Of a DNA stretch of 32,904 nucleotides, positions 6,997 to 26,205 are shown piece after piece (position 1 is the stretch's first letter; the number at the start of each line of letters is the position of its first letter). Made by a program: the position numbers and the translations under genes. Location: the IMG/VR virus record IMGVR_UViG_2778261269_000003, positions 1-32,904 of that record; one strand, written 5' to 3'. This DNA comes from a virus (lineage: Duplodnaviria > Heunggongvirae > Uroviricota > Caudoviricetes). The notes under the pieces were generated by a model. It worked only from the letters and a program-made list of their open reading frames with translations, was not told the origin of the DNA and ran no database searches.

Positions 6997-7002
6997 TGAA
7001 TT

Positions 7003-7585: not shown

Positions 7586-7804
7586 ATGCCAGGCATCTAC
7601 CAAATCACCCTCACGACCCAAACAGGCGAAACCTTCACCGGAAAGATGACTGGGAGTCAGCCTGAGTTGGTTAATGGCTTTGTGCCGCTGGCGACCGAGA
7701 CTGGCGAGTGGTTGTATTTCGCTCCCGCCGATGTGAAGCGCGTGGAGTTCACGCCAGTACCGGTAGAGAAGACCGAACAGCCAGCAGACGAAACAACGGA
7801 GTAA
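7586..7804 (+). CDS. Small hypothetical protein
   Basis: 72 aa ORF with AAGAGG RBS 7 nt before ATG; acidic C-terminus. Confidence 0.45.
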   Translation: MPGIYQITLTTQTGETFTGKMTGSQPELVNGFVPLATETGEWLYFAPADVKRVEFTPVPVEKTEQPADETTE

Positions 7805-7807
7805 CCC

Positions 7808-7954
7808 ATGATTATCACCACCAAAGTTTCTCTTCGGCCTTACATGAAGCCGCTACTTATTCTGTCGGCGTTGCTTCACTGGGATTGGTTAACCGGTAAA
7901 TGTTTCAAAGTTGAAATGGTTGACGGCAATACGGCGACCATCGAATCGAAATAA
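7808..7954 (+). CDS. Very small hypothetical ORF (48 aa)
   Basis: ATG 7808 with GGAG about 7 nt upstream, stop TAA 7952-7954; below the ORF-track length cutoff. Confidence 0.25.
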   Translation: MIITTKVSLRPYMKPLLILSALLHWDWLTGKCFKVEMVDGNTATIESK

Positions 7955-7965
7955 TGGAGTAACGA

Positions 7966-10175: not shown

Positions 10176-10185
10176 GGACAACTCA

Positions 10186-11661
10186 GTGAGTAACGATACA
10201 GAAATGCAAGTCCTCGCTGGGCTCATTGTGAACAGCCTCAACGAGGTCTCGAGATCACGTCAGCTTTATGCGGCTGGCTTCAACAAATCAGGTAACACCA
10301 AGCGGCACCATCTGTGGTGTGAATTTGGCTACCCTGAGCGTCTCGACTTTGACCACTTCTACAACATGTACGAGCGTAATGGCGCTGCGTTCGGCGCGGT
10401 TCATAAACTGCTGGATGCATGTTGGTCTGATAGTCCAGTAATCGTGGATGGCGACGAAACCAAAAAGGCCAAAAAGACCACGCCTTGGGAAAAGAAAGTC
10501 ACCAAGCTCATGAAGAAGTACTGGGCAAAAGTGAAAGATGCCGATCGACGGAATCTTGTCGGGCACTATTCCGCTCTCATCCTGCAGTTTGCAGACAGTC
10601 GGGAATGGTATGAACCAGTAAATCGTGACGTAATGCGTAATTCCCGTGAGCGCGGCCTGGTAAAGATGATTCCTGCATGGGAATCGCAGGTGAAACCGGG
10701 GGAGTTAGAGCAGGATCAGAAGTCTCCTGATTACGCCATGCCGAAGTTCTATTACTTCCAAGAGCAGCCTGTCGGGGATAACGGCAACATTGTCGGACCG
10801 ATGCGCTCCATCAAAATCCACCCTGAACGCATCATCATGTTTTGCGAGGGGTCAGAAGACGAATCATCCCTGGCTGGCATTCCTTTCTTGCGGGCAGGCT
10901 ATAACGACCTGCTGGATATGGCTAAAACCTCCGGCGGCAGCGCTGAAGGATTCCTGAAAAATGCCAGCAGGCAGCTCGGCATTAACATGTCGAAAGACAC
11001 CAAGATTGAAAAAATCATGGAGGATGCCAAGAAAGCCGGATATTCAGGGCTGGCTGAGGCGCTAAACGCCGCTATACAGAAGTTGAACTCTGGTACTGAT
11101 TCGGCGCTGGTTACGCAGGACGGAGAGGCGAAGGTGCTTTCTGTGGCCGCTGCCGATCCGAGTCCAACATGGACAGTGTCAGCTAATCAGTTCTCATCTT
11201 CAGTTCAATTGCCTTTCACCATCCTGTTTGGTCAGCAGACAGGAAGGCTTGCGTCAGATCAGGACAAAAACGACTTTGCCAAGCGCTGCAATAGTCGCCG
11301 CAATGGGTTCCAGACCGACCGGGCGAGTGCAGTTATAGAGCGACTTTGGACGGTGGAAGTTATCGAACCACCTAAATCTGGCGAAATCACGTTAACCTGG
11401 TCCGATCTACTCGCGCCAAGCGAGAAAGAGAAGATTGCCAACATGAAGGAAATGGCTGCGGTCGCGAAGGATACTCAGCAAGCCTATGGCACACCTGCTG
11501 TTGATGAGAACGAGGTCAGGGAGGCTGGAGAACTTGAGCCGCGTGAGGATGTTAAAACACCTGACCCAAATAAAAAGGTAACGACCGATGATCCTCTTTC
11601 CGATGACACTGGAGCAAAAGACGAAAGTAGGGACACCGGTAGTTCCGCGCAGCAAGGTTGA
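10186..11661 (+). CDS. Portal protein
   Basis: About 490 aa following terL; GTG 10186 with AAGGA RBS (alternative ATG 10204); acidic C-terminal tail. Confidence 0.72.
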   Translation: MSNDTEMQVLAGLIVNSLNEVSRSRQLYAAGFNKSGNTKRHHLWCEFGYPERLDFDHFYNMYERNGAAFGAVHKLLDACWSDSPVIVDGDETKKAKKTTPWEKKVTKLMKKYWAKVKDADRRNLVGHYSALILQFADSREWYEPVNRDVMRNSRERGLVKMIPAWESQVKPGELEQDQKSPDYAMPKFYYFQEQPVGDNGNIVGPMRSIKIHPERIIMFCEGSEDESSLAGIPFLRAGYNDLLDMAKTSGGSAEGFLKNASRQLGINMSKDTKIEKIMEDAKKAGYSGLAEALNAAIQKLNSGTDSALVTQDGEAKVLSVAAADPSPTWTVSANQFSSSVQLPFTILFGQQTGRLASDQDKNDFAKRCNSRRNGFQTDRASAVIERLWTVEVIEPPKSGEITLTWSDLLAPSEKEKIANMKEMAAVAKDTQQAYGTPAVDENEVREAGELEPREDVKTPDPNKKVTTDDPLSDDTGAKDESRDTGSSAQQG

Positions 11662-11692
11662 CCCGACGCGATCGGCAAAACAGGTCACCGCG

Positions 11693-12586
11693 ATGTTTCG
11701 GGATATCGAGGACCGGTATCTCGGCATCAAGCATGCACTGAAAGCTCAATTCGACCAGCGTCTGATCGGGCGGGAGCGTGAGGTAAACAGCCATAACTGG
11801 CACTTCCTCTGCCACGACCACGGCGAGGATATGCGGCTCTACCAGGTCAACGCCGGCAAGTTCATCTACGACATGTCGGCGCAGGAGCTGGCTGACCTGC
11901 TGGAAGCTGTGCAGGGCATTCTCGACGATTACCTGCTGGATGGTGGCGAGCAAAACCTCTGGGCTATGGATTACGTCGTCGCAGAGGCGCAGCGAGGCAC
12001 ACTGGAGGCATTCAACAACCTCTCTCAGCAGTCACAGGTGTACGCCAGCCAGACGACGCTACAGCAGCTTTTAAGCAGCCCTGGTTATCTGAACCAGATA
12101 GCGGCGGCCAGGCTGACAACGTTCAGTGACTGGAAGGTCATCAGCGATACGGCCCGCGGCGACCTGACCAACATCATCACCGATGCGGTAGCGCGCGGAG
12201 TGAATCCTCGCGAAACGGCCAGCGTCATCAGCAAGCGTCTCGATGTGTCCATGTCGAAGGCAAAGACTATCGCTCAAACTGAACAGGTCGGCGCGCTACG
12301 GCAGGCGCAATGGAATGAAACGGACTGGGCTGCTGACCGGTTGGGGCTGAATACCGGACTGCTGTGGTTGTCGGCACTCAAGCCAACAACGCGAACCTGG
12401 CACGCCAGCCGCCACGGCAAGGTCTACACCACTGAAGAGGTGCGGGACTTCTACGCCGAGAACGGCAACCGGTACAACTGCTACTGCAGCCAGATTCCGG
12501 CCCTGCTCAATGACGACGGCAGCATCTTCAATGAAGGGCTGGCTGAGAAGCTGGCGAAAGAGAGAAAGGCCTGGGCGTCAGGTTGA
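11693..12586 (+). CDS. Head morphogenesis protein (Mu F / SPP1 gp7-like)
   Basis: Position after portal, size and C-terminal Cys-containing region (NRYNCYCSQIP); start uncertain (11588, 11603 or 11693 all in frame). Confidence 0.6.
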   Translation: MFRDIEDRYLGIKHALKAQFDQRLIGREREVNSHNWHFLCHDHGEDMRLYQVNAGKFIYDMSAQELADLLEAVQGILDDYLLDGGEQNLWAMDYVVAEAQRGTLEAFNNLSQQSQVYASQTTLQQLLSSPGYLNQIAAARLTTFSDWKVISDTARGDLTNIITDAVARGVNPRETASVISKRLDVSMSKAKTIAQTEQVGALRQAQWNETDWAADRLGLNTGLLWLSALKPTTRTWHASRHGKVYTTEEVRDFYAENGNRYNCYCSQIPALLNDDGSIFNEGLAEKLAKERKAWASG

Positions 12587-12590
12587 TTCA

Positions 12591-12779
12591 TCAACCAAAT
12601 TCAACGACCTCATTAACTACAACCGTTAAATCATCGAATGTAGGCTTGGCGAATTGTAGGGCATGGTTCATGCAAAAAAGCATTGCGTCCTCACCCTTTG
12701 GATCGAGATATCCATCGTAATCAACGAAGATATCGTAGGATTGCCGGTTGATTGTGTAGTTAATTTTATACTTTTTCAT
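12591..12779 (-). CDS. Small hypothetical protein on the opposite strand (moron candidate)
   Basis: 62 aa ORF, ATG with AAGG RBS about 10 nt upstream, AT-rich relative to neighbours, convergent with head morphogenesis gene. Confidence 0.45.
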   Translation of the reverse strand: MKKYKINYTINRQSYDIFVDYDGYLDPKGEDAMLFCMNHALQFAKPTFDDLTVVVNEVVEFG

Positions 12780-12844
12780 TTTCTAATCGCCTTAATTACC
12801 TTCGAAGCATTTGAAATTTCAACATAGCATGAAGAGGACCCAGC

Positions 12845-14233
12845 ATGAAACGCAACCGCGTTAACGTGCTGACCGTCGTCAACTCCGCTTCAAACATCAC
12901 CACTGAAACCATCGACGGCAAGCCACATATCGTGGTTCGCGGCATCACGCCTGTCGTGGACGATATCGTGATGAACCGGAAGTTGTACCCGGCAGCAGAA
13001 ATCGAAAAGGCCTACAACACGCTTGAGCGTAACCCGATGCCGCTGGGCCACCCGAAGGTGGACGGCAAGCACGTGTCGGCGCGAGATGTCCGGGCAGTGA
13101 ATGAGTACCACGTCGGTGCCTGGCTGCAGAACGTCAGCCACAAGGACGGGAAGGTGACGGGCGATATGTACGTTAACCGCCAGTACGCCGAGTCCAGCGA
13201 GAAGGGCAAGCGCCTGATTAACCGTCTGGATGAGATGCTAGAGGGTACCAACTCCGACCCGATCCACATCTCCACCGGCCTGCTGTATTCCGGAATCGCC
13301 GCCAACGGCGAGTCGAAGGGCAAGAAGTACAACGAGATCGCCACCAACATGATGTTTGACCATGTGGCGGTGCTGCTCGATGAGCCAGGCGCAGGTACGC
13401 CGGAGGAGGGCGTGGGCATCTTCGTTAACTCAGAAGGTGATGAGCAACAGATTGAAGTTGCCCGTCTGGCTGACGGAATCGACTGCACCCGCGACGGCCT
13501 GCTCAACAAGACCAAATTCTTCTTCACCAACGCCTCCAACTTCTCTTTCGACGACATCTCCCGGGCTATCAGCGACAAGCTGCGCGAGGGTGACACCGAA
13601 GATAAGTGGCTTTGGCCTGAAACGGTGTGGCCGGACAGCTTCATCTACCGCGATGACACCAAATACCTGAAACAGAAGTACCTCATCGATGAGGGCGGCA
13701 AGGCCGTGTTCGTCGGCGAACCTGTAGAAGTCGTGCGCAAACCCACTGAGTACGAGATTAAAACCAACGGAGAGAATGATCCGATGAAAGAACTGATTAT
13801 CAATGCGCTGCAAGCCGCTGGTAAGCCGACCGAAGGCAAGTCCGACGCCGAGCTGATGGACGCATACAACCAGATGAAGGCCGACGAAGCCACCGCCAAG
13901 AAAAAAGGCGATGAAGAAATCGACCCTGAAACCGGCAAGCCCAAGAAAAAAGAGCAGGCCACCAATAACGAAGAGATGCCAGCCTGGGCGCAGAAACTCG
14001 CCGATCGCGTGGACGTCGTTTTCAACAGCCTGAACGCGAACGCCGATAAAGAGAAAGGCGAAAAGCGCGCAGCTGTGAAGCTGGCGATGAACATGAGCGA
14101 TGAAGAAGTCGCGGATCTGGACGGTAAGGCGCTCGACGCTATGTACGCCAAGTGTCAGACATCTTTCGGCCTGAACGGTGCGTTCCGCAACCAGGCTACC
14201 AACACCCAATCAGTCAGCGAAATGCCGGAGTAA
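12845..14233 (+). CDS. Putative prohead protease / scaffolding fusion protein (DUF2213-like)
   Basis: 462 aa between head morphogenesis and capsid genes; GAAGAGG RBS; C-terminal third is K/E-rich coiled coil typical of scaffolds. Confidence 0.55.
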   Translation: MKRNRVNVLTVVNSASNITTETIDGKPHIVVRGITPVVDDIVMNRKLYPAAEIEKAYNTLERNPMPLGHPKVDGKHVSARDVRAVNEYHVGAWLQNVSHKDGKVTGDMYVNRQYAESSEKGKRLINRLDEMLEGTNSDPIHISTGLLYSGIAANGESKGKKYNEIATNMMFDHVAVLLDEPGAGTPEEGVGIFVNSEGDEQQIEVARLADGIDCTRDGLLNKTKFFFTNASNFSFDDISRAISDKLREGDTEDKWLWPETVWPDSFIYRDDTKYLKQKYLIDEGGKAVFVGEPVEVVRKPTEYEIKTNGENDPMKELIINALQAAGKPTEGKSDAELMDAYNQMKADEATAKKKGDEEIDPETGKPKKKEQATNNEEMPAWAQKLADRVDVVFNSLNANADKEKGEKRAAVKLAMNMSDEEVADLDGKALDAMYAKCQTSFGLNGAFRNQATNTQSVSEMPE

Positions 14234-14236
14234 AAA

Positions 14237-14665
14237 ATGGCTAAAGACGGAAAACACGTAATTCACGCCGGTGGCATATTCCCTAACCCGCTGCTCAACC
14301 GTGAAGGCCGCGCCACCGCGGTCAAACCCGGCACCCTGGGCTTCTTCGATGCTGGCGTCTTCAAGGCGTCGGTAGATGGTAGCGAGACAGCGATTATCTA
14401 TGTCGCTGACTTCGATTATCTGCGCTGCAAAACGGTGGACGACACCTTTGCAGTAGATGATCTGTTGGTTGGCATCCATCCCTTGCCTGGCATGTTCCTG
14501 AACGTACGTGCTGCTGCCGGGACCTATAAAAAAGGCGACGCTCTCTCAATCGTCAACGGCCAGGTGAAGAAGTGGTCCACTGGCGAATCAGATCGCTGCT
14601 ATTGCGACGAAGAGCGCTCAATCACCGCCGCTGCTGGCGATCTCATTCGCGTAGTGATTAAGTAA
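14237..14665 (+). CDS. Putative head decoration-like structural protein (DUF2190-like)
   Basis: 142 aa gene between protease/scaffold and major capsid; GGAG RBS. Confidence 0.5.
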   Translation: MAKDGKHVIHAGGIFPNPLLNREGRATAVKPGTLGFFDAGVFKASVDGSETAIIYVADFDYLRCKTVDDTFAVDDLLVGIHPLPGMFLNVRAAAGTYKKGDALSIVNGQVKKWSTGESDRCYCDEERSITAAAGDLIRVVIK

Positions 14666-14676
14666 GGAGTCACTGA

Positions 14677-15771
14677 ATGCTTGTTTATTCTAAATCGCTG
14701 GGCGAAAAGACCGGCAACCTGGCCGTGAACCAGTACCAGTTTGGTATGCTGACACAGGAGCGTAATGCCGCACTGAACCATCAGGGCGTTAACGTCATGC
14801 AGGAAATGGCTGATCGCATTAATGCTATTAACCAGTTGAATGGCATCAACGCCGTGCGCTCACCTGCTGACCTGTACAAGGCCTTTGACCAGACCGTGCT
14901 GCGTCAATTCCAGCCGAACACTGAGTTCACACTGTTTAATGACCTGATGCCGCTGTCTCGTTCGGTACGCATCAATCAGACCGTGTACGAATACGCTAAG
15001 TCTGGCGGCCGCATGTGGGCCCACACCTCCATGTCTGGTCAGATTGGCGCGGCGCTGGATGCTGTGCAGTACCAGTACGACGGAACGATGGTTCCGGTGC
15101 ACGATACCGGCTTCAAGTTCCACTGGCGTGAGCCGCGCCTGAACAACCCGGACGCGTTCGACATCATCTCTGATGCTCAGTTCGAGTCCACCAACGAAGT
15201 TCGCCGCCAGTACGTGGATTACATCTACAACGGTTACCGCGACGCGGAAGGCAATTACATCAAGTTCGACGAGAAGACCTGGAAGGGCCTGAAGAACGAC
15301 GAGCGTGTGGCGATGGTTGACCTTGGCGCATCTGGCCTGAATATCGACTTCACCAGCGCGTCGGCGACCGCTGAGCAGATCCGCAATGCGGCAATCAAGC
15401 TGCGCGACACGCTCAAACTGACCAACAACCAGTACGCCGAGCAGACCTGGTATGTGTCGAGCGCCATCATTTCTAACCTTGAGCGCTACTTCAGCGACAA
15501 CTACCAGTCTGACACCATCTTGCAGGAGCTTCTGAAGTTGTCCGGTATTTCCGCGATTAAAGAAGATGCTCAACTGACCGGCAACCAGATCCTGATCGTT
15601 CCGCTGACTGCTGGTGTGATTGCACCGATTGTAGGCCAGGCGTTTGGCACCGTTGCCGATCCGCGTCCTTTCTACAATAGCGATTACATCTGGCGCACCT
15701 GGGGCGCGGCTGGCCTGATGGTTAAGACCGACATCAACAGCAAGAAATCTGTCATCTACGCACACAGCTAA
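14677..15771 (+). CDS. Major capsid protein
   Basis: 364 aa, AAGGAG RBS, position after scaffold and decoration genes; resembles lambda-E-like capsid family by eye. Confidence 0.78.
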   Translation: MLVYSKSLGEKTGNLAVNQYQFGMLTQERNAALNHQGVNVMQEMADRINAINQLNGINAVRSPADLYKAFDQTVLRQFQPNTEFTLFNDLMPLSRSVRINQTVYEYAKSGGRMWAHTSMSGQIGAALDAVQYQYDGTMVPVHDTGFKFHWREPRLNNPDAFDIISDAQFESTNEVRRQYVDYIYNGYRDAEGNYIKFDEKTWKGLKNDERVAMVDLGASGLNIDFTSASATAEQIRNAAIKLRDTLKLTNNQYAEQTWYVSSAIISNLERYFSDNYQSDTILQELLKLSGISAIKEDAQLTGNQILIVPLTAGVIAPIVGQAFGTVADPRPFYNSDYIWRTWGAAGLMVKTDINSKKSVIYAHS

Positions 15772-15780
15772 GGGGTAAAC

Positions 15781-16158
15781 ATGGCACTGGTAGAAATCAT
15801 TACAGACAATCTGTATGCCGGTGCCAACCTCCGCAAACTGGAGGTTGGTGCGGTTGTTGAGGTGGACGATGCAACAGCAGCGCGCTGGAAAGCGACCGGT
15901 AAAGCGAAAGACACTGACAAAAAGAAGGGTGAAAAACTCTTCGGCGAGTCAGTACCGGCAGCATCACAGCATAGCGATTTGCTCGAGCAGCTGACGGCGG
16001 TGACGAAGGAGCGTGATGAATCTCTGGAGCAGGTGGCTAAACTCACTGACCAGGCTGCAGCTGAAAAAGCCACATTCGATGAGCAGCTGGCGGCGGTGAC
16101 GAAGCGCGCTGAAGAGGCTGAAGCCGCCTTGGCTGAAGCTACCAAGAAGGCGAAATAA
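15781..16158 (+). CDS. Hypothetical coiled-coil structural protein with internal repeat
   Basis: 125 aa; repeats EQLTAVTKER / EQLAAVTKRAE encoded by near-identical 24-nt stretches at 15976-16006 and 16081-16110. Confidence 0.5.
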   Translation: MALVEIITDNLYAGANLRKLEVGAVVEVDDATAARWKATGKAKDTDKKKGEKLFGESVPAASQHSDLLEQLTAVTKERDESLEQVAKLTDQAAAEKATFDEQLAAVTKRAEEAEAALAEATKKAK

Positions 16159-16160
16159 CC

Positions 16161-16541
16161 ATGGCTGACCCAATCACAGCGGCAGACGTGCAGTCGTTCC
16201 TCGGTGAATTGGGTTACTCCATCCCGGGCGCGCTGCTGGAGCCGATCCTCTGCGTGGTGAATAAGATTATCCCTTGCCTCGATGGCGCTGGGTATGACGA
16301 CTGCACCGCGAAGCTGATCCTGATGTATGCCGCCGCGCTTATGGCTACGTCGTCCGGCGCTCGCCGCATCAAATCGCAGGGTGCGCCGTCTGGCGCGTCC
16401 CGCTCGTTTGAATATGGCGACGACAGCATTACCTGGCTGCGCGACTCGCTGGCGAAACTCGATACCAGCGGCTGCACCAATGAGCTACCAATCAGCGCCG
16501 GTAACAGTGTGGGCCTGTTCATGGTGGTTGGAGGCTGCTGA
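16161..16541 (+). CDS. Putative head-tail connector / adaptor protein
   Basis: 126 aa ORF immediately after the capsid-associated gene; assignment by position only. Confidence 0.4.
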   Translation: MADPITAADVQSFLGELGYSIPGALLEPILCVVNKIIPCLDGAGYDDCTAKLILMYAAALMATSSGARRIKSQGAPSGASRSFEYGDDSITWLRDSLAKLDTSGCTNELPISAGNSVGLFMVVGGC

Positions 16542-16714
16542 TGTCGTGGATATCCGTTAGCGTCAGGCTTCCGCGCTCGTTCACGCGCGTATGGGTGATG
16601 ACCGACACCGGGCGGGAGACAACTGGCTACGTTAAATCGGACGGTGAGTGGTTCATCAATTGCCCGCGCATCCGGGCGATTGGTGCCGTGGTACTGCGCT
16701 GGAAGGAGGGCTGA
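16541..16714 (+). CDS. Small phage protein (tentatively DUF551-like)
   Basis: 57 aa ORF ATGA-coupled at both ends (16541 and 16714); translation MSWISVSVRLPRSFTRVWVMTDTG...GEWFINCP; not in the ORF track because under 60 aa. Confidence 0.35.
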   Translation: MSWISVSVRLPRSFTRVWVMTDTGRETTGYVKSDGEWFINCPRIRAIGAVVLRWKEG

Positions 16715-17070
16715 TGTCGTCTACTGCTTCATGGTCCTACAACAAGCCATGCACGATATGGCGTAAGGGGGCGGGCGGTAATGATGAGTTTGGCGATCCT
16801 GTCGAACCATATGAACCGCCTGAAACCATCATGTGCGACTACATCGGCGGCCTGTCTGCAAAGCTCGGCTCCATCGGTAAAGAGGTTGTAGTAAAAAACA
16901 CCTTCTTCACAGCTTACGCTCTGGCGGATGAGGGCGATTACATCCTGATTGGTGTTAGCGCTGAGCTGGACCCGGTCGTGGCCGGTGCCGATGAGGTGCG
17001 CCACGTTACCCGCTGGAACGACACGCTCGACGGCCTGGAAGATGACTGGGCGATAATTACGGGAGTGTAG
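16714..17070 (+). CDS. Putative head closure / head-tail joining protein
   Basis: ATG 16714 preceded by AAGGAGG; 118 aa; position between connector and tail completion genes. Confidence 0.45.
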   Translation: MSSTASWSYNKPCTIWRKGAGGNDEFGDPVEPYEPPETIMCDYIGGLSAKLGSIGKEVVVKNTFFTAYALADEGDYILIGVSAELDPVVAGADEVRHVTRWNDTLDGLEDDWAIITGV

Positions 17071-17072
17071 CC

Positions 17073-17537
17073 ATGGGCATAAAAGTGAAGGGCGTCAGCC
17101 AGGCGAAGAAGCATCTGAACGATGTCATCAACGACGTTAAGGGGCGCAAGGTAATTCGCGCGCTGCAGTCCGCGATGATTCTTATCGGTGCGCGGGCGGC
17201 CTATTACACCCCGATCGACACCTCTACCTTGGTTAACAGCCAGTTCCGTGAAATCGACGCTGGCGGGGTTCTCATCACCGGGCGCATCGGTTACTCAGCC
17301 AACTATGCCGCGTACGTGCACGAAGCGTCAGGCAAGCTGAAAGGCCAGCCGCGCGCGCACTTTGGCGTGACCAGTAATCGCTCATCAGTTGGACCGCAGA
17401 AACCGAAAGAGTTCGGCGGCGGTATCGGGACAGGTAACTACTGGGACCCGCATGGTGAACCACAATTCCTGACCAAAGGCGCGAATGATGAGCGCGATAA
17501 CGTTGACGCGGTGATGCGCAAGGAGCTTTCGTTATGA
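17073..17537 (+). CDS. Tail completion protein (HK97 gp10-like)
   Basis: 154 aa; position and size match gp10-type tail component. Confidence 0.5.
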   Translation: MGIKVKGVSQAKKHLNDVINDVKGRKVIRALQSAMILIGARAAYYTPIDTSTLVNSQFREIDAGGVLITGRIGYSANYAAYVHEASGKLKGQPRAHFGVTSNRSSVGPQKPKEFGGGIGTGNYWDPHGEPQFLTKGANDERDNVDAVMRKELSL

Positions 17538-17917
17538 CACCCATGATGCACGAGCGGGTGCGCAACATGTTCGGCGACGCCGGGCTAACGACCGGTTTCA
17601 CGGTTCAACAGCTGATGTACGATGACCCGGGAAAGCTAACTGAAGCGGTGATGGTGTTCAGGCCAAACGGCGGGTCGAACATCCGTACTGACCTCGGTTC
17701 TGAGTATCACGTGCTGGTCGACGTCGTAGGCGCGAAAGACAAGCGCAAAGACGCGCTCAGCGCCGTGCAGCGCATCGTCGATTATGTCCAGGCTAACCCC
17801 ATGGCTGACGAGTGCGTCGGCTACATCCAGAACATGGGCGCAATTCCCGCGCCGGTGCTCACAGAAGAAGGGCGAATAGTCTTCCGACTCCAGTTCGCCT
17901 GCACTTACGGCGAATAG
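17534..17917 (+). CDS. Putative tail terminator protein
   Basis: 127 aa, ATGA-coupled to upstream gene, immediately before the major tail protein gene. Confidence 0.45.
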   Translation: MTPMMHERVRNMFGDAGLTTGFTVQQLMYDDPGKLTEAVMVFRPNGGSNIRTDLGSEYHVLVDVVGAKDKRKDALSAVQRIVDYVQANPMADECVGYIQNMGAIPAPVLTEEGRIVFRLQFACTYGE

Positions 17918-17932
17918 CCATCCCAACCAAAT

Positions 17933-17957
17933 AACCCGCTGAGGCGGGTTTTCTTTT
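17933..17957 (+). terminator. Rho-independent terminator / attenuator before major tail gene
   Basis: AACCCGC-TGAG-GCGGGTT followed by TTTTCTTTT. Confidence 0.6.
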
Positions 17958-17979
17958 ATACATCAAAGAGGAGTTTCAC

Positions 17980-18723
17980 ATGGCTAATTGCCAGAACTCG
18001 AACGAGCGCCTGTTCGGCGGTGCGGTCGTGCTGGAAGTCGCCGATGGCTGCCCGGACGTCAAACCACTCGAAGGTGAGTGGATGGCGCTGGCCGCTGGTA
18101 CGTCAAAGGGCTTCGACTTCAACCCGAACTCGGTTACCTCTGATGCGGATGACGGCGGCGGCTATGTCGAGACCATCATCACCAACAGTGATTTCACCCT
18201 GAGCTTTGAAGGTGAAGTGCGCAAGAAGGACAAGCTGGATCAGTACGGTGTCGGCAAATTCATCAAGTATTTCGCTGACGAGCTGAAGGCCAAACGTCAA
18301 CCCGGCATCTGGGTTCGCATGGATTACGGTCCGGTCGAATTCGTGGGCTACATGAACATCACGGCGCTGAGCTCTGACGGCGGTACCAACGACATCGTCA
18401 CATTCTCCACCGAGTTCAAAGTCGGCGATGCAACCACCATCGAAGTGAACGAGCTGACTGCTGTAGCGGTGACTGGCGTAACGGTAACTCCGGCTACCAG
18501 CACCGGCACGGCAGGCGGCACCAGCACCTTCACGGTGAACATCGCACCAACCGGCGCTACCAACAAAGATTTCACTGTGGCGACTACCGACGCGACCAAA
18601 GCAACTGCCACCGCCTCCGGCAACACCGTTACCGTGACGCGTGTTGCCACCGGCAGCGCGCAGATCATCATCAACACCGAAGACGGCAACTTTGTGGCCG
18701 TGCATACGGTTACCGTTACCTAA
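17980..18723 (+). CDS. Major tail protein with C-terminal Ig-like (Big_2-type) domain
   Basis: 247 aa; AGAGGAG RBS; C-terminal about 90 aa is Thr/Ala/Val-rich beta-type region (VTGVTVTPATSTGTAGGTSTFTV...). Confidence 0.75.
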   Translation: MANCQNSNERLFGGAVVLEVADGCPDVKPLEGEWMALAAGTSKGFDFNPNSVTSDADDGGGYVETIITNSDFTLSFEGEVRKKDKLDQYGVGKFIKYFADELKAKRQPGIWVRMDYGPVEFVGYMNITALSSDGGTNDIVTFSTEFKVGDATTIEVNELTAVAVTGVTVTPATSTGTAGGTSTFTVNIAPTGATNKDFTVATTDATKATATASGNTVTVTRVATGSAQIIINTEDGNFVAVHTVTVT

Positions 18724-18780
18724 CGGACATTCCAAAGGGCGGCGTGCTGCCCTTGATAATGACCGTTTACTGGAAGGCTT

Positions 18781-19452
18781 ATGACCGCTTTAACCGATAT
18801 TGGCGAACTATCTGTCAGTGACAGCCGCACCGGCGGGAAAGACTACCTTCTCCGGCCTTCATTTGAGGCTATGACCAGGATCGGCACTCCGGAAGAGATT
18901 GTGCAGACGTACGCCACCATCCACGGCAATGATGTTGCTCAGTTGATTGAGGTGTGTGCTGGCACGCTGGGGGGCTTTCCTGAATGGCTGTCTCCTTCTT
19001 TCAATCGCGCAGCTGAGAAGCTGTTATCGACGTGCATGCTGGTGCTGCAGGCATGCTGCGAGGAAGACCTGACGCCAATGATCGGCGAGTGGAAAGGGTG
19101 GCGGCATTGCGTTGTCTATCGCCCGGGCCAGATGCCGAAGAACGACATCATCGTACTGGCGCAGCACCTCATGCAGCACGGTGTCGTCGGAAAGGCAAAG
19201 GTACGCCAGTTGCAGCGCCACGAGACTGGCGAGCGCACAACAGAGTTTAAAGCATTCGACTACATCAGCGCGGCGCGTAGCCACTTCGGCATGAACCGTG
19301 TCGAAGCCTCACAGTTAACGATGACCGAATTTCAGATGCTGCTGGCGGCGAAATATCCCGATCAGAAAGGCTTCACACGCGATGAGTACGACAGCATCGC
19401 CGACGAATACCTGGCTAAACAGGCCGCACGCAGGGCAAAAGCAAAGCAATAA
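18781..19452 (+). CDS. Putative tail assembly chaperone
   Basis: 223 aa between major tail protein and tape measure; assignment by position. Confidence 0.4.
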   Translation: MTALTDIGELSVSDSRTGGKDYLLRPSFEAMTRIGTPEEIVQTYATIHGNDVAQLIEVCAGTLGGFPEWLSPSFNRAAEKLLSTCMLVLQACCEEDLTPMIGEWKGWRHCVVYRPGQMPKNDIIVLAQHLMQHGVVGKAKVRQLQRHETGERTTEFKAFDYISAARSHFGMNRVEASQLTMTEFQMLLAAKYPDQKGFTRDEYDSIADEYLAKQAARRAKAKQ

Positions 19453-19464
19453 CCGGAGAATGAC

Positions 19465-22395
19465 ATGGCAGGTGAGAAGAACGCCGGTAGCATCGTTTAC
19501 GAAATCAGCGCCGACGTTGAGCCGCTGTTGCAGGGCGGGAAACAGGCCATTGATGCTCTGGATAAACTGGATGCTGCAGCTCAGCAGTCCGGTAAGGGAA
19601 TGGATAACCTCGATCAGAGCACGTCCCAAACCGGATCCGCGTTTACTGAGCTGGCTGGCTATGCCAACTCTATGGATAACCAACTGCGTAAGCTGAACAC
19701 CAACGTGAGCGGGATCGCCCGAGCCATGGAAGAGGCTCGCAGCGGTACCGGTGGCGCTAACAATGAGTTTAATCGCGCAGAATCAATTATCGAGGCCTTA
19801 GGTAACCAACTCGCCGTGTTGGATGAGGCGCAAGAGAATGGCGCACGCAGTGCCGCGGTGCTGGCTGCTCAACTCCGTGCCGGTTCGAAGGCGACCGATG
19901 AAGAAAAGCAGAAGATTGGCGAGCTGACTGGTCGACTTTATGACATGAAAACTGGCGCCGAAGGTGGAGCGAAAGGTACTGGAAGCTGGAAATCCAGCAT
20001 GCAGCAGGCTGGTTATCAGGTTCAGGACTTCATAGTCCAGGTGCAGGGAGGGCAGTCTGCGCTGGTGGCTTTTGCTCAACAGGGCTCGCAGCTCGCAGGC
20101 GCGTTCGGTCCGGGCGGCGCAGTGGTTGGAGCATTCATTGCGCTCAGTTCAGTAATCGCTGGTGTGCTGATAACTTCGCTGAATGGTGGCAAGACAGCCA
20201 TGGACGCGCTCAAAGACGCAGCCGAAGCGATGGACAAGGTCATCAACGTCTCAATTAATGGCGTGGCTGCGCTGTCAGACAAATATGCGTACCTGGCGAA
20301 GACTAATGCTGAAGTAGCCACGCTGATGCGTAATCAGGCGCTTCTGGAGTACAACGAGGCGATCAACAAAATACCGAAAGCTATCAGTGATGCTTCAAGC
20401 TCACTGTTGTCTTTCGGTGATAAAGCATTGTCGGCCTTTTCCGGCGGCTATGCTTCGGTAGAAGGTTTTAACGATCGCCTGGCTACTCTGGAAATAACCA
20501 CCGATAACTATGCTGAGGCGGTCAAGCAGGCATACGGCGCCGGTCAGGCGTTCCAGGCGACAGCAAACAGTATCGGGAATACTGTTGGTGCTGTAGCGGA
20601 TAAGTTCGGCATCACCGAGCAGAAAGCCTTCGAGCTTAGCAAGCAGCTTTCAGATATTGCCAAAAACCCATCTCCTGAGGCATTGCAGCGCCTGGCTACA
20701 GAACTGCAGAACACGCAGAGCTCCACTGAAAAGGGACAAACTGCGCTCACAGCGTTCGTTGGTAAGTTGGTAGAACTGTCCCGTGAGGCGGTAATTGCCA
20801 AAGGCAACGTGGCAGCCCTCAAGCAGGAGACCGACAACCTGACGAGCGGTCAGAAGAACCTGATCAAGCAGTCAGAGCGAAACCTGGCCTTGTCGAAGCT
20901 GCAGGGTGAGGCTCGCGCCAGGCTGCAGGCTCAATATGCTGCCGAAGATGCTGGTTTTGCGAAGGATGATCCACACGCGAGGCAGATGGAAGATGACGCT
21001 GCCGCTACGTATAAAAATACGCAGGCGCAGAAGACACTTCAGTCCGAGCAGAAAAAAGGCGCTTCCCAGGCGGATTCCATTGCGCAGAAACTGGCGAATC
21101 TGAAACAGCAGTCAGAACTTGCCGCCGACTCAACCAATAAGCTGAGTCGCGAACAGTCGATGCTCAATGCAGAGCAGTCTCTTGGGAAGGGGGCTACTCA
21201 AGCGCAGATCGCAGAGGCTCGCCAGTATGCTGCTGCAAAATGGGACACTGCCAACGCCATAAAGGCGCAGGCGGCAGCGGAAAAACTTCTTCCTGAGGCA
21301 CGCGAGAACGCCAGTTACAGGCAGGATGTAGAGGATTTAAATACCGCTCTGGCTGCGAAAAAAATCAGTCAGGAGCAGTTCAATCAGACATCCGAGCGAC
21401 TGGAGGCGACTCACCAGGCGAACCTGGCAAAAATCCGCGCCCAGCAGGCGGTAACTCCACAGCAGGATGCGGTCGGTGGTGTTGACCCTGTTCAGCAACT
21501 GGCGAACGAGAATGCCAGAAAACTCGCGCTTATTCAGGCATTCGAGCAGCAAGGGCTTATCACTCATCAGAACGCACTTATGTTGCGCGCTACTGCTGAC
21601 AGGGAGTACGAACAGGCACGTATAGCAGCGCAATGGGAGATTTTCCGTAACCAGAGCGCAGGCAATGAAGCGCTGGCGGCGTCATTTGATGCACTGGCTG
21701 GTAATGCGTCCAATGCCTTAACCGGCATCATCACCGGGAGCATGTCAGCATCTGACGCTTTGCGATCGATCGGCAATACCGTCCTGAACAGCCTCATCAA
21801 TACTTTCGTCCAGATGGGCGTTGAGTGGGTGAAGTCGGCAATCATGGGACAGACAGCCACCACTGCAGCAGTTGCAGCATCAACTACGGCGCAGGCGGCT
21901 GGCATTGCCACCACGACGGCAACGTCTACGGCAGCGGCGGCAGCTACCACGGCGGCATGGACTCCTGCGGCCATCATGTCCTCCATTGCCTCGTTCGGTG
22001 GTGCGGTGGCGATCGGTATCGGCGCTATGGCTGGCATTTTGGCTCTGTCAGGTAAGCGCAAGAACGGCGGTCCAGTATCGGCTGGCGGGATGTATCAGGT
22101 AGGCGAAGGCGGCATGCCGGAGATTTACCAGGCCAGTACCGGTAAGCAGTACATGATACCGGGCGATAACGGCAAGGTGATCAGCAACAAGGATATGACC
22201 GCAGGGGGCGGTGGCGGGGTGGTAATCAACATACAGAACTACACGTCATCATCGGTCGATGCGCAGGCCGGAACGGATGCTAATGGTGGAGTGACTGTGG
22301 ATGTAATTGTCGCTGACCTGAACAACGGCGGCCCAATCAGCAACGCCATAACCAGCAATATGAACGTTAAACGCACGCCAAGGGGGCAGGGCTGA
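19465..22395 (+). CDS. Tail tape measure protein
   Basis: 976 aa, Ala/Gln-rich coiled-coil composition, hydrophobic Gly/Ala-rich segment near C-terminus; GGAGAA RBS. Confidence 0.9.
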   Translation: MAGEKNAGSIVYEISADVEPLLQGGKQAIDALDKLDAAAQQSGKGMDNLDQSTSQTGSAFTELAGYANSMDNQLRKLNTNVSGIARAMEEARSGTGGANNEFNRAESIIEALGNQLAVLDEAQENGARSAAVLAAQLRAGSKATDEEKQKIGELTGRLYDMKTGAEGGAKGTGSWKSSMQQAGYQVQDFIVQVQGGQSALVAFAQQGSQLAGAFGPGGAVVGAFIALSSVIAGVLITSLNGGKTAMDALKDAAEAMDKVINVSINGVAALSDKYAYLAKTNAEVATLMRNQALLEYNEAINKIPKAISDASSSLLSFGDKALSAFSGGYASVEGFNDRLATLEITTDNYAEAVKQAYGAGQAFQATANSIGNTVGAVADKFGITEQKAFELSKQLSDIAKNPSPEALQRLATELQNTQSSTEKGQTALTAFVGKLVELSREAVIAKGNVAALKQETDNLTSGQKNLIKQSERNLALSKLQGEARARLQAQYAAEDAGFAKDDPHARQMEDDAAATYKNTQAQKTLQSEQKKGASQADSIAQKLANLKQQSELAADSTNKLSREQSMLNAEQSLGKGATQAQIAEARQYAAAKWDTANAIKAQAAAEKLLPEARENASYRQDVEDLNTALAAKKISQEQFNQTSERLEATHQANLAKIRAQQAVTPQQDAVGGVDPVQQLANENARKLALIQAFEQQGLITHQNALMLRATADREYEQARIAAQWEIFRNQSAGNEALAASFDALAGNASNALTGIITGSMSASDALRSIGNTVLNSLINTFVQMGVEWVKSAIMGQTATTAAVAASTTAQAAGIATTTATSTAAAAATTAAWTPAAIMSSIASFGGAVAIGIGAMAGILALSGKRKNGGPVSAGGMYQVGEGGMPEIYQASTGKQYMIPGDNGKVISNKDMTAGGGGGVVINIQNYTSSSVDAQAGTDANGGVTVDVIVADLNNGGPISNAITSNMNVKRTPRGQG

Positions 22396-22892
22396 TGCCA
22401 ATTATCGACTATCCCGACTGGCTGCCGCTGGCGCAGAAGGCCAGCAAAAACATGACGCTTGATACAGGGTTCCAAACCGATCAGCCAGCGGTAGGCCCGG
22501 CTATCTTCGAGAATCAGACTGATGACCTAAAAGTGACATGGTCGGTAACGTGGATCTTCACGCTGGCTGAAGAACGAGCTTTCCAGCAGTGGCTACAAAG
22601 CCCGAATTATCTCAATCGTGGACTGAACTGGTTCCGGATGAATATCAATCTGGGCGGCAGTGGACTCCAGTTGCAGGAGCTTCACTTCACGCAGATGCCG
22701 GTGCAAACCAGTATCGACGGCGGGGTGGTGACCTGGGCGGGGACGGTTATTGCGAACCATCTCTACAACGCCGACGACGAATTTGACGACATCATTGTTG
22801 AGCTGCCACCGCCGTGGGATTCGTGGCTGGATATCGTAGTTACTGGTTATCCGGACGGCCGCGATCCGGAATCACTACCGAGGGTGCCGTAA
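22395..22892 (+). CDS. Minor tail protein (distal tail component)
   Basis: 165 aa, start overlaps tape-measure stop (TGATG). Confidence 0.5.
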   Translation: MPIIDYPDWLPLAQKASKNMTLDTGFQTDQPAVGPAIFENQTDDLKVTWSVTWIFTLAEERAFQQWLQSPNYLNRGLNWFRMNINLGGSGLQLQELHFTQMPVQTSIDGGVVTWAGTVIANHLYNADDEFDDIIVELPPPWDSWLDIVVTGYPDGRDPESLPRVP

Positions 22893-23362
22893 TGCCGAGC
22901 TTCAGAGAGTACAAGCAGCAGCGGCCGACGCGCGGGCTGTACGACACCATCACGTTCTACCATCCATCCTTTGGCTATATCCGCTTGGTCGACAAGCAGT
23001 TCTTTCCGAAGGTACTAGGAGGCCAGACGTACACGCCAGCGCGCTTTGAAATTGAAGAGAGCCAGCAGAGTGGCACGCCGGTGATAGACGCGACTGTGAA
23101 GTTAGGGCGGCTGTCGTCGGATATCAAAACGCTGATGAAGCAGTGGAAAGGTGCGGCGCGGCTGACGGCCATCACGGCCACCCGGAAAATCTTCGACAGT
23201 GGAGACGTGTCAGTGCCGATTAAGTCGTGGGAGTTGTACGTCAAGACGGTCGATATTGACGCCGATGCCGCTTCAGTGACGCTTTCTGTCACTAACCCGC
23301 TGAACAACAACATAGGCCGACTTTATGACCCTCAGGAATACACCGGGCTACAGTACCTCTGA
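22892..23362 (+). CDS. Minor tail protein
   Basis: 156 aa from ATG 22892 (TAATG coupling); the ORF-track start at 22814 is an upstream alternative. Confidence 0.5.
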   Translation: MPSFREYKQQRPTRGLYDTITFYHPSFGYIRLVDKQFFPKVLGGQTYTPARFEIEESQQSGTPVIDATVKLGRLSSDIKTLMKQWKGAARLTAITATRKIFDSGDVSVPIKSWELYVKTVDIDADAASVTLSVTNPLNNNIGRLYDPQEYTGLQYL

Positions 23363-23741
23363 TTTCATCAGCAAGGTGATCGGCGTGCCTTGGGCTAACC
23401 GGGCCTGCTCGTTCGAGAAAGTCGACTGCTGGGGATTGTGCGTGCTGTATTACCGGCATGTTCTCGGCATTGAGTTGCATCAGACGCCGGATTACGAAGC
23501 CGGCGAGGACTTCTTCACCTGCTATCAGGGTGACGTCGTTTTCTGGCGCCAGGTCGATAAACCAGTTGAAGGTGGGATATTCGTCGGGTACTGCGGCTCG
23601 CAACCGGCACACGTTGGCCTGGTGCTTAACCGGCAGGCGCTGCACTCGCGGGGCGAGAACGGCAGTGTGCGCATGGACTCGTTACTGGTTATTCAGAGGG
23701 CTTTCACTAAAGTGGAGTATTTTTCTTATGGCGCTGGTTGA
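23325..23741 (+). CDS. Tail-associated NlpC/P60-family cysteine peptidase
   Basis: 138 aa with candidate catalytic Cys in VDCWGLCVLYY and downstream His in PAHVGLVL. Confidence 0.62.
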   Translation: MTLRNTPGYSTSDFISKVIGVPWANRACSFEKVDCWGLCVLYYRHVLGIELHQTPDYEAGEDFFTCYQGDVVFWRQVDKPVEGGIFVGYCGSQPAHVGLVLNRQALHSRGENGSVRMDSLLVIQRAFTKVEYFSYGAG

Positions 23742-26205
23742 GATATCGAATTTTCCAGGAACGCCTAAGCTGCGTTGCAGGGTGCCAAACGGTACCCTTT
23801 TTTATGACTGGCTGGCGGCCAATGATGCCACCTTTCACAGTGATCTGCTAATCGTCCGCAACGGCGTGAGGTTAAGTGATGATGATGAGCTGGCGTTTGA
23901 ACTGAGCGAACTGGACAACATCCAGATATTCGACCAGCCAAAAGGTATCGTCAGCGATATCCTGAGCCCGATCTTCAAAGTTGTAGGCGCTGTGTTTTCC
24001 TTCCTGGCTCCTAAGCCTGCAATTGCTAACAACGGTGGCAACACCGTCGACTCACCGAATAATAGCCTGACTGGGCAGACAAATACCGCCAGAGTATACA
24101 AAGCGAAGCCTGACATTTATGGTCAGGTCAGATCGTTTCCCGACTTGATTCAGGAATCGATGTTTGAATATGTGCGCCAGAGCGAGAACGATGGTGGCCT
24201 GAAATATGTCACTGAGTGGATGTGTATTGGTATAGGTAAGTATGACTATGAGTCTGTTCGTTACTCAGAGTCGAGTCTTGGATCGATGGCCGGTGCTGAA
24301 TACCAGTTTTATCAGCCTGGTGAAGTGATACCGACTATTAACGAGGGGTATTCGTTCGACGATGTTGACGGGCAGGAGATGCCAGGGCCCAACGAAAGCG
24401 ACAATTTCCCAGTAGAATCTGCGACGGCAAATACCGTAGTAAGTGGTGATTATGCTGGAGGCCAGATAGCGATGAAAATCGTCAAGCAGGCTGAGTTCGA
24501 CTACTTCATGGGGCTCGTGCTACCGCATTCTGTCACCTTTACAATTAATGTCACCTACAACACTACATCGGGCAGCGTTACAGAAGATGTGCTTTTCTCA
24601 GGTACGCTGATTTCTGCTGTAGAGAGTGATGATGGTTCCTTGATAGACCATGTTCAGTGGTACACGTTCACCATGACAGATTTGCAGGGACCGCCAACAG
24701 TTCCATCTACTGCCACCATTAACACGACAAAATTCATTCTCAATGATAACGAGGCGCTTGTTGTGGGGCCTTTCTTCTCGCCTGTTGAGTCAACTGAGCT
24801 GTGGCTGCATACACAGTCATCACTTGGTGGCGGTAACTGGACGGACTGGACGGTAACAATCTGGAAAATTGACGACGATTACAATCAGATCCCCGGAACT
24901 CAGCAGGCCTTCACCTATCATCAGGGAACGCCGCATAAGTCGACCAGCGAAGTGTTTTATCGCACCGATAAAATAATTCCAGCAGGAGGGTTTGGTAAAT
25001 ACGCCATCAACTTCCAGCGTACAAACAACTCCAATGATGCCTCTATCCTGAAGGTCGAAGAGATTCACGCCGTTAATATTCGCAGCAATGTGGTTCACCC
25101 GACTGATACGCTTGTTCGTGTGAAGGTCAGGGCGACAGAGAATGCACTGGGTAGCCGTGACCGCAAATACAACGCCATGGTGACTCGCCATACCATCAGT
25201 TACAACCTGACGACACAGTCCGTGGATTACACATTACGGCCGTCTCGGTCGTTTGCTGACGCGGTGGCGCATACCTGGCTTGTAATGGGAGGCCAACCAG
25301 AAAACAGTATTGATCTGTACGGCCTGTACTCTATCGTGGAAAGCCTGCCTGATGAGCGGCTGGGCTACTTCGACTACACGTTTGACGATGAGAACGACTC
25401 ACTTGGTGACAGGGTGCAGGCGATCTGCAATGCAGCATCCGTCATGGCGTACTGGGATGACGGTGTGCTGACATTCACCCGCGACCAGAAGGTTGATTAT
25501 CCTGCTGCTGTATTCAACCGGGCCAACATGAAGACAGACGAGTACAAAATTACGTACGAAGCCACTCTTCCCGGAGGTTACGACGGCGTTCAGGTCTCCT
25601 ACGTTCATCCGACTACGAATAACAAGACGTACATCAACTACCGCGTTCTGAACGGCGTTATCGTCGAGCAGGAAGCTGAGAACCCAAACAAGCTTGAGAT
25701 AGTAGGATTCCGTAACGAGTACCAGGCTCGTGAGCGAGCGTTACGCGAAACAAAGCGGCTTATCTACTCCCGGGTGAAGATGAATGCCAAGGTATTTGAG
25801 GACGGGATTATCCAGGTGGGCAGCGTTATCCAGATGCCGGATATCTACGACAGCAACCAGCAGCAGGGTTACATCACCGGCCGCACTGGGAATAACTTCG
25901 ATACGAGCGAACCAATCAAGTTTACCGGAACGATGTATGTTCTGGTTACTGACAGCTTGGGCAATCCAACACTGCGTTATCCGGCAACGGCCCGCAGCGA
26001 CACGAAATATGGATTTACTGCAGCAATACCCACCATTCAGCTCAACATATGGAACGGAGACACTGTGCAGCTCCCGTCGCGCTATCTCATAGCGACCGTA
26101 GAAGAGTTAGATAGTCAATTATGGACAGTCAACAGCATCAAACCGAACACTGACAATACGGTATCCCTGATCGTCGCAGAGTACAGCGACTCAGTCTACG
26201 GATAG
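23728..26205 (+). CDS. Large tail tip / host specificity protein
   Basis: 825 aa from ATG 23728 (GGAG upstream); follows NlpC/P60 gene as in lambda-J-type and GTA-type tail tip modules. Confidence 0.65.
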   Translation: MALVEISNFPGTPKLRCRVPNGTLFYDWLAANDATFHSDLLIVRNGVRLSDDDELAFELSELDNIQIFDQPKGIVSDILSPIFKVVGAVFSFLAPKPAIANNGGNTVDSPNNSLTGQTNTARVYKAKPDIYGQVRSFPDLIQESMFEYVRQSENDGGLKYVTEWMCIGIGKYDYESVRYSESSLGSMAGAEYQFYQPGEVIPTINEGYSFDDVDGQEMPGPNESDNFPVESATANTVVSGDYAGGQIAMKIVKQAEFDYFMGLVLPHSVTFTINVTYNTTSGSVTEDVLFSGTLISAVESDDGSLIDHVQWYTFTMTDLQGPPTVPSTATINTTKFILNDNEALVVGPFFSPVESTELWLHTQSSLGGGNWTDWTVTIWKIDDDYNQIPGTQQAFTYHQGTPHKSTSEVFYRTDKIIPAGGFGKYAINFQRTNNSNDASILKVEEIHAVNIRSNVVHPTDTLVRVKVRATENALGSRDRKYNAMVTRHTISYNLTTQSVDYTLRPSRSFADAVAHTWLVMGGQPENSIDLYGLYSIVESLPDERLGYFDYTFDDENDSLGDRVQAICNAASVMAYWDDGVLTFTRDQKVDYPAAVFNRANMKTDEYKITYEATLPGGYDGVQVSYVHPTTNNKTYINYRVLNGVIVEQEAENPNKLEIVGFRNEYQARERALRETKRLIYSRVKMNAKVFEDGIIQVGSVIQMPDIYDSNQQQGYITGRTGNNFDTSEPIKFTGTMYVLVTDSLGNPTLRYPATARSDTKYGFTAAIPTIQLNIWNGDTVQLPSRYLIATVEELDSQLWTVNSIKPNTDNTVSLIVAEYSDSVYG

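Follow-up and report, generated by a model that had tools for sequence, protein, structure and literature searches.

A DUF6246 gene of a lambdoid prophage as a candidate single-frame, two-domain tail assembly chaperone

Locus and gene order

The stretch of DNA analysed here, referred to as the window, comprises 32,904 nucleotides (nt) of the IMG/VR virus record IMGVR_UViG_2778261269_000003 and is a mosaic lambdoid element, a prophage. This work concerns its gene at 18781-19452, a member of the DUF6246 family lying between the genes for the major tail (tube) protein and the tape measure protein, which we propose to encode a tail assembly chaperone in a single reading frame. The initial annotation had placed the end of this 223-amino-acid (aa) open reading frame (ORF) 12 nt before the tape measure start, and this was confirmed, with the ORF spanning 18781-19452 and the tape measure ATG at 19465. 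The gene, the parts of its product as predicted by a structural model (see below), and its immediate neighbours are as follows.

17980-18723, plus strand: major tail (tube) protein gene (phrog_853 'major tail protein', E 3e-102)
18781-19452, plus strand: DUF6246 gene, proposed single-frame tail assembly chaperone; ATG start, 223 aa, TAA at 19450-19452
18781-19188, plus strand: predicted N-terminal alpha/beta domain (N domain), aa 1-136; three short strands, then helices
19189-19251, plus strand: predicted flexible linker, aa 137-157; no secondary structure in the model
19252-19449, plus strand: predicted C-terminal helical domain (C domain), T-like, aa 158-223; motifs HFGMNRVEASQLTMTEFQMLL and FTRDEYDSIADEY
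19453-19464, plus strand: 12-nt spacer from the chaperone stop to the tape measure ATG, CCGGAGAATGAC
19465-22395, plus strand: tape measure gene, ATG start, 976 aa (phrog_1538, E 1.4e-220)

The whole interval between the tube gene (stop at 18723) and the tape measure gene (start at 19465) is occupied by ORF 18781-19452, and the ORF list of the window contains no second candidate between the two. A Shine-Dalgarno-like GGAG at 19455-19458 is located inside the 12-nt spacer and would serve the tape measure gene. The tape measure protein is the presumed client of the chaperone. The tube protein, which has an immunoglobulin (Ig)-like C-terminal end (Pfam Big_2 at aa 163-244), is presumed by analogy with lambda gpV to be the partner of the chaperone's C domain.

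One coding frame and no conserved recoding signal

In most long-tailed phages a programmed ribosomal frameshift unites the two halves of the tail assembly chaperone. This G/GT frameshift is among the most conserved phage recoding events and serves annotators as a landmark. As no slippery site had been recognised in the gene under study, the initial annotation offered two alternatives: production without frameshifting, or a site that had gone unseen. We compared the window gene with a close set of 79 distinct coding sequences (>90% identical to the window) and a diverse set of 11 copies (30-52% identity). A conserved heptamer was absent from both sets, which favours production without frameshifting. 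The last 150 nt of the gene contain no slippery heptamer, the sole run there being AAAA at 19437. The only in-phase X_XXY_YYZ heptamers of the window copy are G_GGG_GGC (18969) and C_CCG_GGC (19122), from which a -1 shift leads to a stop after 2 and 40 codons, respectively. Since both would shorten the product instead of extending it, the canonical site is truly absent and was not overlooked.

No in-phase heptamer was conserved among the 79 close copies, with CCCGGGN found in 32 of them and GGGGGGC in one. CCCGGGC at codon 115 was considered as a slip site and rejected: it arises from conserved Arg-Pro-Gly codons, is present in 32/79 copies and would truncate the protein within the N domain. 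In the 11 diverse copies heptamers were sporadic, none of them at homologous positions. The ORF is under purifying selection in frame 0 along its entire length, with one coding frame over codons 1-223. Nucleotide diversity at codon positions 1/2/3 was 0.053/0.017/0.257 in the N domain, 0.057/0.051/0.382 in the linker and 0.024/0.023/0.268 in the C domain, position 3 being 5-15 times more diverse than positions 1 and 2 in these three parts. A 15-codon sliding window over 75 close copies revealed no marked local dip in synonymous diversity, the lowest values being those of the first 15 codons.

The initial annotation had also described 19382-19696 as the only overlapping ORF in an alternative frame. 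It is the sole one that passes the stop, but other plus-strand ORFs overlap the gene internally:

18947-19072, 19032-19250 and 19112-19294, plus strand: internal overlapping ORFs (ATG/GTG/TTG starts)
19382-19696, plus strand: +1-frame ORF, 104 aa, judged non-coding

The remark that 19382-19696 has an unprotein-like composition held, its translation being rich in Arg, Trp, Ser and Thr. This ORF also overlaps the strongly supported tape measure start, and variation at third positions follows frame 0 of the chaperone gene; we judged it non-coding. A map of stop codons put the end of the -1 frame at 19461 and showed no stop in the +1 frame between codon 182 and 19694. A cryptic 3′ frameshift into the +1 ORF would find an open path here, and a read-through of the stop would fuse the chaperone to the tape measure protein, whose gene lies in the same frame in the window, past TAA plus 12 nt. 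Yet the +1 frame closes at codon 242, 259, 277 or 305 in relatives that are >90% identical and is not open in distant ones, and the last 150 nt lack a slippery motif. Across the diverse set a +1 or -1 shift would lengthen the product by at most ~15 aa, barring entry into the tape measure frame; the exceptions are the non-conserved +1 ORF of the window itself and one 41-aa run in the relative L172. The DNA downstream of the gene in distant relatives is often a minus-strand gene or a terminator: a minus-strand gene follows in Midgardsormr38 and mEp013, a terminator and then a minus-strand gene in 535AP2, and a 220-nt gap in S137, so that there is no room for an extension in these four.

As for read-through, the stop overlaps the next ATG (TAATG or TGATG) in Salmonella LPST10, Klebsiella KlebP_265, Pseudomonas BR243a and Vibrio phage 1.076.O, which puts the two genes in different frames. 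Close coupling is thus conserved and the frame relation is not, and a read-through fusion is no feature of the family. Both forms of 3′ extension are largely refuted by these comparisons, and we hold them to be very improbable. The sequences indicate that a frameshift extension almost certainly does not exist, and that no signal is maintained for any other recoding.

The DUF6246 family and its conserved position

The window protein matches Pfam DUF6246 (PF19759) at 239.5 bits (E 3e-71; curated gathering threshold 27 bits) over model positions 1-184 of 185, and phrog_791 (PHROG 791, of unknown function) at E 1.4e-90. When 1.84 billion cluster representatives were searched with a profile, 451 DUF6246 members were obtained (50%-identity clusters, E <= 1e-3). 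Among the best 150 of these 451, nearly all are 180-240 aa long and match the profile end to end in one stretch. This one-piece layout across the family indicates that the single-piece architecture is ancestral and stable, and not a local fusion or an assembly artefact. Stand-alone T-like ORFs were not seen among the best 150 profile matches, all of them full-length family members, a listing that is unable to reveal such ORFs.

The family is present in many phages of Proteobacteria. By tblastn a homologue was found in 332 phage records, with Salmonella, Klebsiella, Pseudomonas, Escherichia, Vibrio, Aeromonas, Erwinia and Mannheimia among the hosts. The order tube, DUF6246, tape measure was present, sometimes with inserted morons, in 11/11 annotated relatives fetched (CobraSix, Salmonella LPST10 and S137, Klebsiella KlebP_265 and ST101-KPC2phi6.1, Pseudomonas BR243a, Mannheimia 535AP2, Erwinia Midgardsormr38, Vibrio H2 and 1.076.O, and Escherichia mEp013). 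In temperate relatives (L172, L173, L175, L176, L085) morons stand beside the DUF6246 gene, on one side of it, and include an Arc repressor with an antirepressor, helix-turn-helix genes, HicAB, and small minus-strand ORFs with terminators. The tube-chaperone-tape measure interval is an insertion hot spot.

The authors of the Klebsiella phage KlebP_265 record arrived independently at the annotation 'tail assembly chaperone' for their homologue. The same label had been given to the window gene as a guess from position, and it gains support from the conserved synteny and from the remote similarity of the C domain to a frameshift-accessed T domain, described below. In a comparison of the window with 52 related loci, relatives with a chaperone differing by 4-6% had a tape measure protein that diverged by 23% in the first 200 aa and by 47% in aa 201-600. 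Very different tape measures are apparently served by one and the same chaperone. Co-variation of the N domain with the tape measure protein, and of the C domain with the tube protein, was uninformative among the 52 close relatives, as divergence was too low, and the only correlation, between the Ig domain of the major tail protein and the N domain (rho 0.39), reflects physical linkage. NCBIfam gave no match for the window protein, two relatives or RcapNL gp16 (see below), and a full-text literature search for 'DUF6246' returned one unrelated genome paper only.

Predicted two-domain architecture and the possibility of a short form

The AlphaFold2 model, built on an alignment of 89 diverse family members, has a mean predicted local distance difference test score (pLDDT) of 87.7 and a predicted template modelling score of 0.78; a run on 36 close homologues (pLDDT 48.6) was discarded. 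The model predicts two domains joined by a linker with a pLDDT of 59 at aa 141-150. The N domain ends in an invariant H133-G134..G137 motif. It has no significant match to any chaperone family, and its G-like nature is weakly supported. A PHROGs scan of the two domains separately found only phrog_791 and the small phrog_29657 (unknown), while a sequence search of the PDB with both profiles gave nothing meaningful and Foldseek against the PDB gave nothing.

The position of the linker bears on a reverse arrangement, in which the fused full-length protein is made by default and a short, G-only form arises by a low-level -1 shift to a nearby stop, by termination or by proteolysis in the linker. 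The shift would follow the example of E. coli dnaX (tau/gamma), in which the full-length product is the default and the shorter one results from a -1 shift into an immediate stop. A short form would fit with lambda, in which G is needed in large excess over GT. In the window, codons 136-138 (GTC GGA AAG) stand at the inferred G/T junction and are one base off the lambda site G_GGA_AAG; the -1 frame after codon 138 reads KGKGTPVAAPRDW... and reaches a stop 19 codons past this site. In Mannheimia phage vB_MhS_535AP2 (L085:2986-3651) an in-phase A_AAA_AAT occurs twice, at codon 128 and at codon 149, with the stop at codon 151 ending either -1 path. These heptamers would give a dnaX-like short product, and may be due to chance in an AT-rich genome. 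Furthermore, a Pasteurellaceae-like metagenomic copy (L178:1501-2172, on a Logan ERR4007762 contig) carries an in-frame TGA at the N-domain/linker junction, in the place of window K138 (HGIIG*AKL), with the C domain intact downstream in the same frame. The linker, being predicted as disordered, would also be accessible to proteases.

The junction codons, however, vary freely among synonymous choices: codon 137 is GGA in 40, GGC in 20, GGT in 11 and GGG in 4 of 75 close copies, and codon 138 is AAA in 45 and AAG in 30, which argues that no slip site is maintained at the domain junction. C_GGA_AAG at codons 136-138 was accordingly rejected as a maintained signal, as it is not conserved at the nucleotide level. 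Distant members have A, C, D or V in place of Lys138. A slippery site is conserved at no position of the gene, and the synonymous rate among the close copies shows no dip. The DUF6246 copies compared do not share a conserved in-phase heptamer followed by a near -1 stop, which would be the dnaX-like pattern. As to the TGA variant, its only 90%-cluster mate (P0416) has an in-frame deletion of ~38 aa across the TGA spot, suggestive of prophage decay, and a search of genome contigs found no further TGA-variant copies. The TGA reflects either such decay or a read-through that makes short and long forms. On balance, we consider it unlikely that a short form is made from this gene by any of these routes.

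Relationship of the C domain to frameshift-accessed T domains

Results of a Foldseek search against predicted viral structures placed gp16 of Rhodobacter phage RcapNL next after the DUF6246 family members (E 0.034, probability 0.99), and also returned a Paenibacillus phage 'tail assembly protein' (probability 0.94). RcapNL gp16 (L086:10354-10926) is a 190-aa protein encoded between a tube gene and tape-measure-like genes, and its N-terminal part matches Phage_TAC_11, the RcGTA g10 chaperone family (E 1.2e-8). In three relatives of RcapNL from IMG/VR (L088-L090) the N-terminal part is in frame 0 and the C-terminal part in the -1 frame, with tblastn spans of 3n+2 nt. The slip sequences are A_AAA_AAG in L088 and an A9 run in L089 and L090. 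As judged from sequence, these three have the classical G/GT arrangement, and the A9 runs could act through transcriptional slippage. In the GenBank record of RcapNL, an A7 run leaves the G-like part and the T-like part in the same frame, which is either a variant that occurs in nature or an error in sequencing the homopolymer. One reconstructed GT product of the RcapNL type matches Phage_TAC_6 (E 8.6e-5) in its frameshift-accessed part.

A profile comparison by hhalign between DUF6246 (228 sequences) and a four-sequence GT alignment gave 142 collinear columns with a score of 34.5 (P 1.6e-4, probability 50%). As controls, 60 column shuffles scored 12.6 +/- 2.0 (maximum 18.5) and the reversed template 13.0. 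The C domain alone aligned with the T domain of the RcapNL family over 68 columns with a score of 23.5 (P 2.7e-4, z 5.8, probability 41%; column shuffles 9.8 +/- 2.4). The N domain alone was not significantly similar to the N domain of the RcapNL type (z 1.3). In the full-length alignment the RcapNL-type slip site, 'GKK', falls opposite window aa ~139-142, at the start of the predicted linker. Weak Phage_TAC_6 matches (E 0.05-0.12, 13-14 bits) were obtained for 7/89 DUF6246 members; they fall on window aa 162-191, and their register agrees with that of the hhalign result and of the reconstructed GT product. The window protein itself is below the Pfam thresholds for both Phage_TAC_11 and Phage_TAC_6.

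DUF6246 and the RcapNL type also have in common the motifs G-x4-E-x3-(L/M)-T-x2-E and (P/F)-T-x2-E-(Y/F)-(D/E), represented by HFGMNRVEASQLTMTEF and FTRDEYD in the window and by MGRLPAEVRAMTPEET and PTDAEFE in the RcapNL type. Neither domain gave a signal in hhalign against single sequences of lambda G or T; an IMG/VR scan for relatives of lambda T retrieved only ~99% identical copies, which are useless for a profile. Taken together, homology of the DUF6246 C domain to frameshift-accessed T domains has moderate support from these profile, motif and structure comparisons, which agree with one another but fall short of the customary confidence thresholds.

The same results bear on whether the protein is an assembly chaperone at all. 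It could instead be another tail component or accessory, with chaperoning done otherwise or unneeded; Pfam and PHROGs give the function of the family as unknown, the N domain lacks a significant chaperone-family match, and some records name homologues 'glycoprotein' or 'putative tail protein'. Against this, the position of the gene is strictly conserved across very different phages, the C domain resembles a frameshift-accessed T domain, and the interval from the tube gene to the tape measure gene offers no other candidate ORF. A role outside chaperoning thus appears improbable to us.

Neighbouring features and the wider element

Other features of the late region near the gene are the following.

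17073-17537: Neck1/tail-completion gene
17534-17917: tail terminator gene (PF23842, E 3.6e-50)
18735-18754, plus strand: G+C-rich hairpin of 8 base pairs, AAGGGCGG-CGUG-CUGCCCUU, without a U-tail, within the 57 nt that separate the tube gene from the chaperone gene

The hairpin at 18735-18754 was not called by the terminator scan. Folding of the RNA of 18715-18790 gave -23.5 kcal/mol (z -1.8 vs. shuffles), with a larger structure spanning 18722-18767. The hairpin may act as a stabiliser of the mRNA 3′ end or as a weak attenuator and, more speculatively, could together with the close coupling to the tape measure start set expression levels. A separate terminator-like hairpin, AACCCGCTGAGGCGGGTT then TTCTTTTATA, is found at 17933-17960, inside the late operon, between the tail terminator and major tail protein genes. 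Farther downstream, the ORFs called by the program at 22814-23362 and 23458-26205 overlap the preceding genes by 79 and 284 nt; translation probably begins instead at internal ATGs, near 22889 and near 23738, directly adjoining the stops of the genes upstream.

With respect to the whole element, window positions 32-6520 are ~95% identical to the early region of HK140/E212 (O, P, Q, methylase), and the late/structural region (6465-25000) is ~85% identical to Enterobacter phages ENT1 and BHUENT. The segment 17900-19496 has 92.7% identity to Enterobacter phage CobraSix. Near-identical copies are numerous in Enterobacter, Kluyvera, Klebsiella aerogenes and Citrobacter genomes.

Interpretation

In lambda, gpG and the G portion of gpGT form a coat on the tape measure protein, and the T portion binds the tube protein, whose polymerisation it nucleates; both gpG and gpGT are absent from the virion, and their ratio of ~30:1 results from a -1 frameshift (PMC5009743). 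We propose, with somewhat more confidence than doubt, that ORF 18781-19452 encodes a permanently fused 'GT' tail assembly chaperone, one polypeptide made in a single frame and with no recoding. The proposal builds on the single ORF, the lack of conserved recoding signals, the one-piece layout found family-wide and the location of the gene, with the tube gene before it and the tape measure gene after it. By analogy with lambda, the N domain (aa 1-136) would coat or hold the tape measure protein as gpG does, the linker of ~20 residues would give reach between the domains, and the C domain (aa 158-223) would, like the T part of gpGT, bring in the major tail protein. The partner of each domain, and an absence of the protein from virions, are suggested by analogy only. 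Every chaperone molecule would carry a T-like domain, and the G:GT ratio would thus not be set by frameshifting here, unlike in lambda.

Several points weigh against a permanently fused chaperone. The similarity of the C domain to T domains is remote, as reflected in the hhalign probabilities of 41-50%, and the window protein has no match to Phage_TAC_6 (PF09550; threshold 23.4 bits) even at E <= 1. The literature on DUF6246, on the Jerseyvirus/Skatevirus chaperone and on 3FGX gave annotation-level mentions only, with no experiment on the chaperone activity of DUF6246. Moreover, lambda requires an excess of gpG over gpGT (PMC5009743), and a system that makes only GT would therefore need a different stoichiometry or an unseen route to a short form. 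There is also a bolder proposition, to which we give a rather small chance: either DUF6246 is a natural and widespread GT-only chaperone, or short and long forms have been recreated by several tricks at the linker. If the former is true, the frameshift-set G:GT ratio, thought essential from the work on lambda, would be dispensable. If the latter is true, the varied linker features (the in-frame UGA of L178, A_AAA_AAT in the Mannheimia phage and C_GGA_AAG in the window) would amount to a repeated reinvention of ratio control.

It appears that DUF6246 as a large family of in-frame two-domain chaperones with a T-like C domain has not been described before. The functional assignment rests on position and remote similarity. 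Its novelty is modest, as a function is given to a DUF and no new kind of system is put forward; for the window the finding is largely ordinary, with value for annotation and as a possible natural test of the G:GT ratio rule. Should DUF6246 be a fused chaperone, several hundred genes now called 'hypothetical', 'glycoprotein' or 'DUF6246' would gain a function, and annotation pipelines would get a rule against forcing a frameshift at such loci. It would also offer a tractable enterobacterial lambdoid prophage system in which to ask whether an excess of the short form is needed for tail-length determination.

Comparison with known systems

The gene resembles lambda gpG/gpGT (Phage_TAC_2 + Phage_tail_T) in its place between the tube (V) and tape measure (H) genes and, with the roles assigned to DUF6246 by analogy, in a two-part logic of tape measure binding and tube recruitment. 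The total size is comparable (223 aa vs. 279 aa for gpGT), and a Gly-Lys dipeptide stands at the junction in both. In contrast, lambda makes a -1 shift at G_GGA_AAG, giving ~30 G per GT, whereas here there is one frame with no slip site maintained, and the window protein has no detectable sequence similarity to lambda G or T.

RcapNL gp16 (RcGTA type, Phage_TAC_11 with a Phage_TAC_6-like T) is the closest detectable relative outside DUF6246. The two have C-terminal motifs in common, and in the RcapNL record the parts are likewise in one frame. They differ in that three RcapNL relatives need a -1 shift and the N domains are not significantly similar. The comparison with dnaX shows a further difference, as dnaX has a conserved A_AAA_AAG with stimulators and nothing comparable is conserved in DUF6246 genes.

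Chaperone loci without a frameshift have been recorded elsewhere and show that phages have other solutions as well. T4-like phages have such a locus according to Vladimirov, Gautam & Davidson (2022), as cited in PMC10885494; several subclusters of Microbacterium cluster EA lack the frameshift and express two ORFs separately (PMC7302621); no frameshift sequence was evident in Rhodobacter phage RcZahn (PMC8601537); and in Gordonia cluster DJ no chaperone gene was confidently identified (PMC12859696). DUF6246 is not treated in these papers. Unlike in Microbacterium EA, RcZahn and Gordonia DJ, a single ORF appears to hold both parts here. The authors of PRFect counted 1203 of 3679 SEA-PHAGES genomes without an annotated joined frameshift gene, 347 of the 1203 having a single chaperone gene. 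With such loci on record, the absence of a frameshift is unusual and not new, and the G/GT frameshift is widespread and not universal.

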